Part shown: piece by piece, positions 7,945-63,238 of the stretch | Layout of the letters: every line of letters starts with the position of its first letter | Numbering within the stretch: the stretch's first letter is position 1 | Assembly: GCA_017654855.1 (NCBI GenBank) | Contig: CM030332.1 | Location: 558,001 to 622,000 of the forward strand | Origin: Podospora anserina | Lineage: Eukaryota | Length of the DNA: 64,000 nucleotides | Reading direction: 5' to 3' | Position numbers and translations under genes: made by a program | The notes under the pieces: generated by a model | Told to the model about the DNA's origin: nothing | Seen by the model: the letters and a program-made list of their open reading frames with translations, nothing else | The model's database searches: none

Positions 7945-8056
7945 GGTGAGATGGCCGAGCGGTCTAAGGCGCCACGTTAAGGTCTTCCTTAATCAACATC
8001 TTCTAGCAAAGATTCCGTGGTCCGAAAGGGCGTGGGTTCGAATCCCACTCTCATCA
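7945..8056 (+). tRNA. tRNA-Leu(AAG) with 32-nt intron (7983-8014)
   Basis: Acceptor stem GGTGAGA/TCTCATC, D arm GCCGAGCGGTCTAAGGC, anticodon stem CCACG/CGTGG with TT-AAG-G, long variable arm TCCGAAAGGG, T arm GTGGGTTCGAATCCCAC, downstream T-runs. Confidence 0.95.
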
Positions 8057-8364
8057 TACTCTTTTGCTACATTCTCCAGTGCCTCTTTTTTTGCATTCTC
8101 CACTTATGTGCTCTTGCAAACCTGATTCATGGCTGGGATGTGTGTGGTGATGGTGCATCTTTTTGTCTTGATTTAAGAGCTTGCCGGGGCTTGATATGAC
8201 AAGTATGGATATATGAGAGATCAGACCAACTCGACGAGGCACCAAATCAATGAGAACATGCGAGACTTATACATTGTGTGTCGTTGCTTCTAAATGCTTT
8301 GAGGGGAATCATTTTGTAAACCTTTCTAACCCCGAGTTCAGCCCTGAACGCCGTATATGCTTTT

Positions 8365-30196: not shown

Positions 30197-30768
30197 TCAT
30201 TTTGTTTGTTAGGCGCTTCTTGGTTTTTATCAGATACCACTGTTCTCTCAATGCGGTTTTGATCACTTGAGATGATGGGATATGTTGTTAAATGACTTTG
30301 TGCTTTAATAAGACTCTTCCACCTGCACCCAGGCAATGTTAGTCTACCTTTGGTGGACACTTGGCCGTTCTCTTGCACCTGGAACTCGAAAAAAACACTA
30401 GTAGTTTGAAGCGAAATGTAACTTATGACAGATTTGAGTACAGTGAGTGTTGGTATTTAGATGACACTCATATCAGATGTCTTGTCATCTACCTTCATTG
30501 ACCTGCAAACATCTTCAAGTCTCCGGAGACCCCAAAGACATCTAAAATGTTTAGCCTTAAACAGCGTAACAATACACTCAACGCTCTAATATATTCCTCC
30601 ATGTAACCCCCTTCCCAATCATTTTTTGGAACGATCCCAAGTTCTTCGTCCGTTAAGCCAGCTCTCCAACACTTTCATGACTGACTGAGCAAAAAGACGC
30701 AACTACCTATCAGGCTTATGTACATAGACCCACCTGTCACCAAAAATAGAGTCAAAATGGAGACAAAA

Positions 30769-30887
30769 ACATACAACACCAGGGATTCCCCAGTGGTCAC
30801 CCACCTGAGTACTGATCTGGCGATTAGCTGTTTATCTAGGGGAGAGCGGACGGGATCCCGAGCTTTCAGCTATCTATGGTCGTATGT
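30769..30887 (-). rRNA. Dispersed 5S rRNA gene
   Basis: 119 nt, ACATACGACCATA...CCCGTCCGCTC...GGTGGGTGACCAC..GAATCCC..TGTTGTATGT, followed by a T-run terminator; complementary ends. Confidence 0.95.
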
Positions 30888-31239
30888 GCTTTGCTGTGGC
30901 GAAAACAGCGTTCATAATGAGGTTTGATAAGAGAGGTGGCTTTACAGGGTTAGGGTTGGACGGCGTAAGTGATACTTTGGTAGGGCGACCTCTTTCAAAC
31001 TGCAAATTCAAGTCAAACTGAACCACAAACATTCGATTTTCATCAACGCTCTGGGCAACCTTGAAGAAGTTGCACCGAATATGCTAATATTTGAGCTTCT
31101 TTCTCATATGAACTGAGATTTGGCTTTCAGTTTTCTTCAGCCTGGAGTTTACGTCTTTTTTTGCATGAGTGGCGCTCACTCACCAACCAGCCATCTCACC
31201 TCTCATTCACTCACTCACACCCGCACCACTCACATCAAA

Positions 31240-59263: not shown

Positions 59264-60630
59264 ATGGCGTCTGAGAAGCCCAAGCTGGAGGCGCTCGAAG
59301 AAGAATATGCAAAGATCAACAAACTCCCTAGACTCACGAAAGCGGTGGAGCATGTCGACAAGATCATCGAGTTGCTCAGTGCTGCTCGTGAGCAGGTAGC
59401 TTCAGGTAAGCCGAGGTTCACGCTGGCAATGAGATACGGACGAGGTAGGTATATATGCTCAGGTACTGAACAAGCACACCTCTAGCTCCCGAATCCCATA
59501 CAGCCATCACCATCACAAAACTTCAGAATCCCGTGAAGAGCGCATTCGAGGCAGTAAACGATGGGCTTAAAGGGGCAGCTGCCGCCAATAAGAAGATGGG
59601 AAAGGCTCTGGATAAGTCCTTTCCTCTGAAGCCTCTCCCAACAGACCACGATGCCATGGCAGACCACGTGTCTCTGATAAACAGGGCAATCGCCATGCAC
59701 TTGCTTAGAGAAGGCCAGTTTAAAGTGGCGTCGACATTCATCGATGAGGTTCAGTCAACGACGAAGCGAGAGAATCCGGAATATTTAGACGAGCGTATGG
59801 ACGACGGCAACTACGACGAAGCTGCGTCGACAACGTCGAGCGAGGCCTACGACCTTTCATCCCTCCACTCACAAGAGCTTCAAGAGAGCTTTGCAGGGAT
59901 GTACTACATTTTACAAGAGCTAAAAGCTAGGAACCTGATGCCTGCTATTACGTGGGCGAGGAAAAACTCGGTCGAGCTGGAGGCACGAGGGAGCAATCTT
60001 GAGTTTGAACTAAGCAGGCTGCAGTTTGTTTGGCTGTTCAAAGGACCTTCCGTCAACGGACTACCCGATGACGAGAACAATGGCCAGCGGGGTGCTCTCC
60101 AGTATGCTCGGTCAAACTTTGGCCGTTTCCAAGCACGCCATCTCAACGAGATCAACCAGCTGGCATGCTCCATGGCATTTGCGCCCAACATCGCCGAGTC
60201 CCCGTACAGACAACTGTTTGCGATTGATACTGCCTTCAGTGATGTTGCTTCCTCATTTACCCGCGAGTTCTGCAGTCTGTTGGGCCTCTCGGCCGAGTCG
60301 CCACTCTACCTAGCCGCCACCGCAGGCGCGTTGGCTCTCCCACAGCTGATGAAGTACACGCAAAAGACTCTCGCCAAGGGTACAGAATGGACAACCTCCA
60401 ACGAGATGGCCTTTGAGACACCGCTTCCCGAGAGTATGCTCTACCACAGTATTTTTGTCTGTCCAGTCTCGAAGGAACAAACGACAGACGCCAACCCACC
60501 CATGATGATACCCTGCGGACACGTTTTGGCCAAGGAGACGCTTCAGAAGCTGTGTAAGGGGGCCAGGTTCAAGTGTCCATACTGTCCGTCGGAAGGTATA
60601 CTGAAGGACGCGCGGCAAATCATTCTCTAG
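59264..60630 (+). CDS. RMD5: GID/CTLH complex RING subunit Rmd5; intron 59406-59485
   Basis: LisH INRAIAMHLLREGQF, CTLH (SNLEFELSRLQF), CRA (FTREFCSLLGLSAESPL), degenerate RING YHSIFVCPVSKEQ..PCGHVL..FKCPYCP. Confidence 0.93.
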
Positions 60631-60786
60631 GGCGATGGTGTAGTCAGGACAGCGATGATTGTTTTCATAGCGACAATGAATGTTTTTACAAAAACAAGTT
60701 CATGTTAATGTTTGTCGACAGTAGCACCCTCACCACAAAACAAATGGTAGACGAAAGTAGCTTAACCCATATTGTACTAAGAAACA

Positions 60787-60860
60787 TGCCTTGAAGGATA
60801 ATCATCAGGCCTTCGAGGATAGTTAATAGGCCTTTGAAGATATTCAAAAGGCCTATTGAT
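60787..60860. repeat. Second degenerate 21-bp tandem array, same consensus and orientation as at 58.7 kb
   Basis: Units tgccttgaaggataatcatc, aggccttcgaggatagttaat, aggcctttgaagatattcaaa, then aggcctatt. Confidence 0.6.
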
Positions 60861-60976
60861 TTACGTTTGAGGCACGGTTTATAGTATAATATCGGTTAAC
60901 TTACTTCTATGCCGATTATTTGTAGTAGTTGAAAAAAGTGTCTACAAGTCATTGTCAACCTGGAAAGAATTTATTG

Positions 60977-61130
60977 AAAAAAGCAAAAGAGTTGGGATCT
61001 GCCTCCGGTCTCGAACCCAGGCGTTGTGACCTTAATCTCTGTTAGGTGGGTATGGCTGCAGTTGGTATTTCAGGCATCCCCTCATACCACTGGGCCATTC
61101 CACCCCTCCCCAGGCGTCCCCAGGTGGAAA
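60977..61130 (-). ncRNA. Candidate RNA polymerase III transcript (type-2 promoter, not a canonical tRNA)
   Basis: TATAAA at 61154-61149, A box TGGCCCAGTGG at 61097-61087, B box GGTTCGAGACC at 61017-61007, terminator TTTTGCTTTTTT at 60988-60977. Confidence 0.55.
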
Positions 61131-61417
61131 CTCTTCTCGAACTCGACCTTTATAACCCTCGGAGAGAAGAGCGAGCTAGGGAGGAGCAAAGGGCAGGAGG
61201 GTTAGGGAAGGAGATGCGGGAAGGGGCGAGAGGAAGGGGCGAGATGGAAGAAGCAAGAGGGAAGGAGCAAAAGAGCAGGGAAGGCACGAGGGAGCAGAGT
61301 AACTTAATTCCTGATGCCAGACCCAGCAATTCCCATCTATCATGTCTCATAACTAAATATAGAACAAATCCCATCTCTAACCATGAACAAGAAATCAAAA
61401 CCGTGTATGACCTGGCC

Positions 61418-63238
61418 CTAATATGTATGCTTAGAAACAACCCACAACGCCCTCAACAGCGCCACCGCACCGCCCTGCGTCTCGACCGTCCTCCCCCGTC
61501 CACGGGTATTCGGATCATTGTTCCACAGCTCCTTCGACGGACCTGACGTCCGGTGCTCTCTCTTCTTCATGTCCTCCTTGCCCATCTGCATATAAACCGC
61601 CTTTTGCCTCTCCATTGACACACCAGCAACAGCAGGTAGCCCCTCCTTCTCAGCCTCAACCGGCAACGTGATATTGGGGTTCGTCATCATCCAAACCTCA
61701 TTGTGGGGTACCCCACGATTCCGATAATCATCCTCCCCGTGGTCCGGCGGTAGGACGTGAAGTTTCTCAAAATCATCCCAGCTCATCTTCAGCCCCTGCT
61801 CCCATGGAAATAGCCCAATCGTCCACCACATCCCGAATTTCCCATGCTCGTCTCGTGTGCCTAGAGCAGCAACAGCATTATGTCTCAACCAGGGCACATA
61901 CTTCTTGCACTCGGCAAAGTGCTTCGTCCTGATCCGTGCAAGGCCCTGTTGACTCATCCTAGACCCAGCACTAGGCATGATCTTGTCGAGAGAATTTGGC
62001 GAGCAAAATGTGGTAAAGTGATGCATCCAGATACCCTTGAAAGTCTGGGCGTCTTGCGAGCAAGTTCCAAAAACATCACAGGCTTCCTCCAGCACACCCG
62101 CTCGACCAAGACCCTTCCAGCTTGGAAGCAAGTTGGCGTGATAATCATCCAGATTAGCCACAGGTCTGGCCCTCTCTAGATCCCAACCTGTAGCCCGAAT
62201 CACGTCCTTGATGACCTTGTGTCCAGAATTGAGGTACTCCTCACTGCCAGTAGCAACAAACAACCCCAACTGACCCGACAAAATCACACCCTGGTTGTAC
62301 GTATACACCATCTCGTCCCTCTCGTCACACTCGGTATTGTTGCTCCCCTCGCTGTACCCCGAAATGTGGAAACCATCCGCATACAAGCCCTGGTGGTTAA
62401 TCATCCCAGACGACTCCAACCACTCATACCCCAGCTGCGCTGTCCTGAAAAACATGGGATCATGCGGAGGCCAGTCTCTCTTGCCCAAGTCCCTCTTATC
62501 AAGCCCAGGTCTCACCATCATCTCCTCCCACGGACTTGTATTCTCATCCCCCGGGAAATGGAGATACATTCCAATACTCGCCGCAATCCAAAGCTCGTTG
62601 GTGATGGCATTCTTGTACGGACTCAACCTCGGATTCCACAGCATCCCTCCCCCGCACAGCTTCTGATCCCACCCTTTGCTCGAAAGCTCCCAGAATATCC
62701 TCGCCCTGTGGGCAAACGCCGGCGTCCATCTCTCCCCATGCCACCTCCCGTCTCCCAGCTCGTCAATGAACTGTATCGTTTCCAACCAGCCCAGCACAAC
62801 CCAGAGCATGTCGTCGAACGCCTCCCCGCGCAGGGAGAAGACGTCCTGCCCAAAATAAAAGGCAATCAGCTCGCCAAAATACCGGCCGATAAAGTTGGCC
62901 AGGGCGGGGATGACGATATTAGGCTGGGATCTGGCCAGCTCAAAGTCCTCGGTTATGGTCCGCAGAGCTCCCGCGATGTGGGTGCCCATCACGGCTCTAG
63001 TCCAGTCGATGGCGTCGGGCCAGGTGCCAATCCAGTTTTCGAAGTAATGGTTTTGCATGACGTTTATAGAGGCGCAGAGGTCAGCAAAGAGCTGGGTGTC
63101 AGGTCGGCCTGCCCCTTGTGTCGTCACTTGGGGGGACGTGGAGGAGAGGTTGATGAGGGGGTCAGGTTGGAGTTTGACGGTGGCTGCTGCGTTGGCAGCC
63201 GACGCCAGGGCGACGACTGCTGTTTGGAGAAGCCTCAT
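61418..63238 (-). CDS. Glycoside hydrolase family 76 (alpha-1,6-mannanase-like), secreted
   Basis: Signal peptide MRLLQTAVVALASAANA, catalytic FDDMLW, CGGGMLW, YKNAITNEL, YTYNQGVIL, DAQTFKGI. Confidence 0.9.
   Translation of the reverse strand: MRLLQTAVVALASAANAAATVKLQPDPLINLSSTSPQVTTQGAGRPDTQLFADLCASINVMQNHYFENWIGTWPDAIDWTRAVMGTHIAGALRTITEDFELARSQPNIVIPALANFIGRYFGELIAFYFGQDVFSLRGEAFDDMLWVVLGWLETIQFIDELGDGRWHGERWTPAFAHRARIFWELSSKGWDQKLCGGGMLWNPRLSPYKNAITNELWIAASIGMYLHFPGDENTSPWEEMMVRPGLDKRDLGKRDWPPHDPMFFRTAQLGYEWLESSGMINHQGLYADGFHISGYSEGSNNTECDERDEMVYTYNQGVILSGQLGLFVATGSEEYLNSGHKVIKDVIRATGWDLERARPVANLDDYHANLLPSWKGLGRAGVLEEACDVFGTCSQDAQTFKGIWMHHFTTFCSPNSLDKIMPSAGSRMSQQGLARIRTKHFAECKKYVPWLRHNAVAALGTRDEHGKFGMWWTIGLFPWEQGLKMSWDDFEKLHVLPPDHGEDDYRNRGVPHNEVWMMTNPNITLPVEAEKEGLPAVAGVSMERQKAVYMQMGKEDMKKREHRTSGPSKELWNNDPNTRGRGRTVETQGGAVALLRALWVVSKHTY

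Follow-up and report, generated by a model that had tools for sequence, protein, structure and literature searches.

The DNA analysed here, called the window throughout, is a stretch of 64,000 nucleotides (nt) in which an RMD5-like gene with CTLH and RING domains on the plus strand converges with a GH76 gene on the minus strand. Contigs from four sequencing runs, which are RNA by guess only and whose contigs are strandless, place the ends of the RMD5-like mRNA at positions 60948 and 60951 (run X17 shows a loose A8) and the end of the GH76 mRNA at 61285 in both X15 and X18, the latter with a loose T10. The poly(A) sites at ~60951 and ~61285 leave a space of 333 nt between the two convergent mRNAs, and the candidate unit sits in this space on the minus strand. 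The RMD5-like poly(A) site is located 26 nt before the T-run of the unit, and the GH76 poly(A) site is located 130 nt upstream of its TATAAA. A CT-rich tract (61160-61300, minus strand) carrying imperfect direct repeats of 12-19 nt (families D1, D2 and D4) separates the GH76 poly(A) site from TATAAA.

A sequence-only reading of the window had described the unit as an orphan Pol III transcription unit with A and B boxes and a terminator. A check of the sequence found all the motifs listed in that reading in place on the minus strand (Table 1). The internal A box, the B box and the T-run follow one another in the order of a type-2 Pol III unit, with 69 nt between the A box and the B box. The distance from TATAAA to the A box is 57 nt, rather long for a gene of tRNA type, and no such TATA is present at the true tRNA-Leu gene of the window. 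Judged from the position of TATAAA, Pol III would start near 61125.

Table 1. Features of the candidate unit, its neighbours and the reference genes in the window
Feature	Position	Strand	Basis and remarks
tRNA-Leu(AAG) gene, functional-looking, 32-nt intron; reference paralogue	7945..8056	+	RF00005, 46.3 bits; ARAGORN i(39,32)
Dispersed 5S rRNA gene	30768-30887	-	Rfam, 91.9 bits
RMD5-like gene (CTLH + RING)	59533..60951	+	Pfam; ORF to 60630; convergent with the unit
T-run terminator TTTTGCTTTTTT	60988-60977	-	18 nt past the B box; within the 11-mer ACTCTTTTGCT
Segment collinear with the tRNA-Leu(AAG) gene	60982..61104	-	Position 1 at 61104, through the intron-equivalent, to the trailer ACTCTTTTGCT
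B box GGTTCGAGACC	61017-61007	-	Matches GGTTCGANNCC
ACGCCTGGG, two copies	61117-61109 and 61025-61017	-	Direct-repeat family D7
Isolated ACAGAGA	61042-61036	-	Sequence
Imperfect 62-nt hairpin (predicted)	61105-61044	-	-31 kcal/mol, z -3.21; matched by 1/200 shuffles
A box TGGCCCAGTGG	61097-61087	-	Fits TRGCNNAGYGG; aligns with the tRNA-Leu A box
TATAAA	61154-61149	-	Sequence; 50 nt upstream of tRNA-like position 1
CCCTAACCCT, telomere-repeat-like	61207-61198	-	Upstream of the candidate unit
GH76 gene	61285..63238	-	Pfam; ORF from 61418; upstream of the unit, same strand

Pattern counts showed that the A...B arrangement is beyond chance, although each box singly is unremarkable. The B box pattern GGTTCGANNCC has two matches in the window against 0.52 expected, one in the candidate and the other in the true tRNA, and the A box pattern TRGCNNAGTGG has one match, the candidate itself, against 0.92 expected. 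The composite of an A box, 20-90 nt and a B box occurs twice in the 64 kb, in the true tRNA-Leu gene and in the candidate. Over 1000 dinucleotide shuffles of the window the composite was matched once in total and never with T4 after it, whereas a composite with relaxed consensus was matched 26 times. The right order of the type-2 signals (A box, B box, T-run and TATAAA), as claimed from the sequence, is thus non-random. A constellation of motifs that came together by chance in an intergenic spacer, without tRNA ancestry, would draw on the expectation of ~0.5-0.9 occurrences of each box per window, on the many windows covered by scanning by eye and on the relaxed matches in the shuffles. However, the rarity of the strict composite opposes such an origin, as do the alignments described below.

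The candidate is almost certainly not a working tRNA. ARAGORN in its default (bacterial) mode called no tRNA at the candidate; this mode also misses the true tRNA-Leu(AAG) of the window. With introns allowed, the candidate was absent both at the default threshold, where only the tRNA-Leu was found, and among the 17 calls at 90%. At lower thresholds the candidate appeared only in nonsense models, with an 818-nt intron at 80% and as one among 506 calls at 60%. At the gathering score (29 bits for RF00005) Rfam gave no match at the candidate, and the only matches at this level in the whole window are the 5S rRNA gene and the tRNA. At E<=10 the region 60850-61350 had no match over 4227 families, U6, SRP and RNase P/MRP included. 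The earlier statements that no cloverleaf forms and that no hallmark of a known Pol III RNA is present therefore stand, the former by ARAGORN with and without introns and by Rfam, the latter by the Rfam search at E<=10. Inspection by eye showed a single Watson-Crick pair between acceptor positions 1-7 (GGTGGAA) and 66-72 (GGCAGAT), and the acceptor, anticodon and T stems of the candidate no longer pair.

Alignment of the candidate with the tRNA-Leu(AAG) gene, which is 53 kb away in the same window, showed similarity from position 1 to the trailer. The local alignment extends over 124 nt with a score of 41; 10000 real segments of 176 nt taken from the window scored 35 at most. The global score is 37, compared with 7.7+-5.9 for shuffles in which the A box, the B box and T4 were kept fixed, and two of 2000 such shuffles reached it. 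For the A-to-B segment alone, the observed score was reached by 11 of 2000 shuffles and by 169 of 20000 real window segments. The layouts of the two genes are also close. The starts of the boxes are 80 nt apart in the candidate and 83 nt apart in the tRNA-Leu gene, and the distances from position 1 to ACTCTTTTGCT are 112 and 113 nt, respectively. The 11-nt 3' trailer ACTCTTTTGCT is identical, the 3' end of the tRNA-Leu intron CTAGCAAAGATT aligns with CTAACAGAGATT of the candidate, and the D-arm region is also within the similarity. The resemblance thus extends beyond the promoter boxes, as judged both by shuffles with fixed boxes and by real segments, and an origin of the candidate from a tRNA-Leu gene is very probable. 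By the alignment scores the unit would be no orphan but a full-length, collinear and strongly diverged copy of an intron-bearing tRNA-Leu(AAG) gene. Its long A-B spacing would be long because the class II parent had a 32-nt intron and a long variable arm; with the spacing inherited, a novel RNA body is therefore not needed. The comparison set consists of one tRNA gene, and a different class II tRNA may be the actual parent. The similarity that holds with the boxes fixed (2/2000) and against real sequence (0/10000) also bears against a chance constellation, which we consider highly improbable.

The decamer CTCTTTTGCT occurs exactly three times in the window, in the tRNA-Leu trailer (8059-8068, plus strand), in the terminator of the relic (60982-60991, minus strand) and at 61266-61275 (minus strand). 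The third copy, which falls within the CT-rich tract shortly after the GH76 poly(A) site, is probably due to coincidence in low-complexity sequence and shows no further resemblance to a tRNA. A second relic at 61266-61275 was considered and rejected, as its local score of 20 was equalled by 794 of 3000 random segments. A further explanation raised earlier, a copy of a tRNA-derived SINE, would account for the tRNA-like head, the A and B boxes and the T-run, and a direct repeat with 14 of 16 positions identical (60982-60997 and 61266-61281) brackets 284 nt around the unit. As a target-site duplication this repeat was rejected: its downstream copy is the terminator, and its upstream copy is in the low-complexity CT-rich tract. 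The similarity takes in an entire tRNA gene, its intron and trailer included, and no SINE body or tail comes after the tRNA trailer, where the unit ends. Only one copy is present in the 64-kb window, and a scan of metagenome contigs for an A box, 51-81 nt and a B box gave no match. With nothing else in its favour, a SINE origin is extremely unlikely.

Decay within the candidate is uneven. Outside the boxes, 55 of 94 aligned positions are identical between the candidate and the tRNA-Leu gene, with 7 additional gap columns, whereas in the boxes and T4 the identity is 22 of 26. All 18 consensus-specified box positions fit in the candidate. Under neutral decay at a per-site identity of ~0.59, this would occur roughly once in 10^4 by an arithmetic estimate, which is affected by ascertainment in that the site was chosen for its perfect boxes. 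The uneven decay points to maintenance of the promoter rather than of the RNA. The parent is possibly closer to the candidate than the gene compared here, in which case the divergence could be smaller and the argument for selection on the boxes weaker. A dead relic, that is, a tRNA-Leu pseudogene whose boxes survived by luck, without binding, transcription or function, shares the whole of the tRNA-Leu homology evidence with a maintained promoter, and the selection of the site by eye for perfect boxes also speaks for it. However, the intact 18 box positions, T-run and TATAAA next to stems that have all decayed are improbable under uniform neutral decay, and yeast consensus B boxes are described as binding TFIIIC outside genes too, at ETC sites (PMC5356446). 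Such a dead relic is unlikely in our estimation.

Two contigs overlap the unit. In X15, the RMD5-like gene and the whole unit are joined in one unbroken contig that reaches 61182. In X16, a 160-nt contig with adapter letters on both sides covers 61053-61194 at a depth of 7.4; it spans TATAAA and ends in the 3' arm of the predicted hairpin (Table 1). Possible sources of the X16 contig are a discrete short RNA, a single fragment duplicated by PCR and carry-over of DNA. Both contigs reach upstream of TATAAA, so that neither represents the Pol III RNA predicted here; read-through is one possible source of them and a different low-level transcript is another. None of the four presumed-RNA runs gave a contig with the predicted ends (~61125 to ~60980); libraries of this type would probably miss a short RNA that lacks a poly(A) tail. 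The lack of a fitting contig and the presence of one that crosses the unit are both in line with a dead relic. Positions 61195-61284 are without coverage in all four runs and positions 60949-61052 in X16, gaps that prove nothing. The X15 contig suggests that transcription can cross the unit, against a tight roadblock, with the reservation that a contig over two units does not equal one transcript.

A search of metagenomes with the RMD5-like protein gave eight loci at 55-70% identity, which are too distant to judge conservation or covariation. A B box was present at none of these eight loci, which also fits a dead relic; the one A box match is within the coding match of locus L005. Rfam gave no match on loci L001-L005. 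No GH76 gene was found downstream of the RMD5 relatives, and tblastx of the downstream DNA against the window showed no similarity. The divergent upstream gene of 823 aa is kept in L001-L004, metagenome contigs of fungal relatives with an RMD5 identity of 64-66%. The conserved gene order in these four loci stops directly after RMD5, which corresponds to the place of the relic in the window.

Folding of the predicted 154-nt RNA gave a whole-unit structure no better than those of shuffles (z -1.07). The idea that the unit encodes an unannotated structured ncRNA accordingly gains no support from the fold of the whole transcript. Of the pairings pointed out in the sequence-only reading, TTCCACC/GGTGGAA and TGGTAT/ATACCA recur in the predicted folds, whereas GGGATGCCT and AGGCAGATCCC, which are complementary save for a 2-nt bulge, form just five pairs and only in the centroid. 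A 3' 'acceptor-like' pairing in the region 60990-61082 (z +0.48) is unsupported and was discarded. The X15 and X16 contigs share a G>A difference at 61124 (plus strand), the predicted Pol III start, which is probably a strain polymorphism and would change a G-C to a G-U pair within the 5' TTCCACC/GGTGGAA pairing.

The strands of the imperfect hairpin bring together the former acceptor/D-arm region and the intron-equivalent region, with the A box in the 5' arm. The hairpin was picked post hoc; when the comparison allows for the choice of the best 64-nt window within the unit, 11 of 300 shuffles and 2 of 300 real segments of matched GC content fold as stably. The best fold of the tRNA-Leu region reaches only -17.1 kcal/mol in comparison with -31 kcal/mol for the hairpin. 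The predicted hairpin is a derived feature of modest significance. It raises the alternative of an exapted tRNA-derived Pol III gene, in which the hairpin in the transcript would be processed into a milRNA-like small RNA or would act as a structured ncRNA. The stability of the hairpin relative to shuffles, real segments and the tRNA-Leu fold favours this alternative. In N. crassa, the major milRNAs are described as Pol III transcripts whose loci end in T clusters, and milR-4 as derived from a tRNA-containing transcript (PMC3547838). The candidate resembles the milR-1 to milR-4 loci described there in being a short Pol III-type unit with a T cluster at its end and a hairpin, and it shares the link to a tRNA with milR-4 (PMC3547838). 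However, the choice of the hairpin after looking and the unremarkable fold of the whole unit weaken the case, as does the absence from the window of all 18 published qPCR primers for N. crassa milR-1 to milR-9, a result that is informative only if the host is N. crassa. Exaptation of this kind is quite unlikely. A related proposal, in which a tRNA-Leu gene is caught in the course of conversion, with its promoter and terminator kept and its body remodelled into the hairpin to give a milRNA-like RNA or a structured regulator, is distinctly unlikely.

Sequence comparisons also revealed a shared element upstream of the relic and of the dispersed 5S rRNA gene. The 10-mer CCCTAACCCT has two copies in the window compared with 0.12 expected, and one of 100 shuffles has two; CCCTAA is depleted in the window (9 compared with 22.4 expected). 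The copy at 30946-30955 (minus strand) is at -68..-59 of the 5S gene and on the 5S strand, and the copy at 61198-61207 (minus strand) is 94-103 nt upstream of relic position 1 and on the strand of the relic. The element may be an upstream site for a Myb/Tbf1-type factor. Together, CCCTAACCCT and TATAAA lend slight support, with n=2, to a Pol III-type upstream region of the relic. Counted from its first base, the 5S gene carries a TATA-like TTATGAA at -30..-24, and Neurospora 5S genes reportedly require a TATA box near -29, a finding attributed to Tyler in 1987. A search of the literature on upstream elements of Neurospora 5S genes and on TFIIIC in filamentous fungi found nothing pertinent among the entries listed.

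Comparison with known loci places the candidate among relics of tRNA genes. ETC sites are essentially B-box-only and are not known to recruit Pol III. The candidate is like them in having a consensus B box outside a functional gene and between Pol II genes, but it also has an A box, TATAAA and a terminator; an extra-TFIIIC-like site is nevertheless close to the preferred reading. In common with ordinary tRNA pseudogenes, it shows recognisable descent from a tRNA gene and has lost the cloverleaf. Unlike in them, its promoter and terminator are perfect while the body is ~41% diverged. In S. cerevisiae, the ZOD1 locus, a tRNA-Ile relic, and the tDNA-Arg-derived YGR033C locus are described as having kept the A and B boxes and lost the tRNA (PMC5356446, PMC4228148), as in the candidate. 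In the accounts of ZOD1, TFIIIC, TFIIIB and Pol III are bound, transcription is weak, and the B box limits the adjacent Pol II transcript (PMC5356446, PMC4228148), which becomes longer upon mutation of the B box (PMC4228148). Genuine tDNAs are likewise described as roadblocks, and the 3' end of PCL5, which lies beside a convergent tDNA, is extended once Pol III assembly is compromised (PMC4228148). The candidate differs from ZOD1 in that its probable parent is of the intron-bearing tRNA-Leu type, in that it belongs to a different fungus and has gained the predicted 62-nt hairpin, and in that it is known here from its sequence.

On balance, the candidate is probably an old relic of a tRNA-Leu(AAG)-type gene in which the Pol III promoter and terminator are intact and the cloverleaf is lost. 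The chance that such a relic is still bound by TFIIIC and Pol III, or weakly transcribed, in the manner of ZOD1, is about even. According to this preferred reading, an intron-bearing gene of the tRNA-Leu(AAG) type would have been copied, and the copy would have mutated heavily and lost the tRNA fold. TFIIIC would still bind the boxes of the relic and set TFIIIB at or near TATAAA, and Pol III would then make, probably weakly, an RNA of ~145 nt (~61125 to ~60980). This RNA would have no tRNA function and is likely to be short-lived. If the cell benefits, it would do so through the Pol III complex bound in the 333-nt gap, which would serve as a boundary or roadblock between the convergent mRNAs. 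Such a role has been described for yeast tDNAs, for ETC sites and for ZOD1.

The apparent mystery RNA gene would thus be explained as the relic of a tRNA-Leu gene, a feature of an ordinary kind. If TFIIIC and Pol III still bind the relic, it would be the equivalent, in a filamentous fungus, of yeast ZOD1 and a handy single locus at which to study, outside yeast, whether Pol III complexes keep convergent Pol II genes apart. Should the hairpin be processed, the locus would show the birth of Pol III-driven milRNA genes from tRNA genes, and if a tRNA-Leu gene has indeed been caught converting, it would document a route from tRNA genes to fungal Pol III small-RNA genes.
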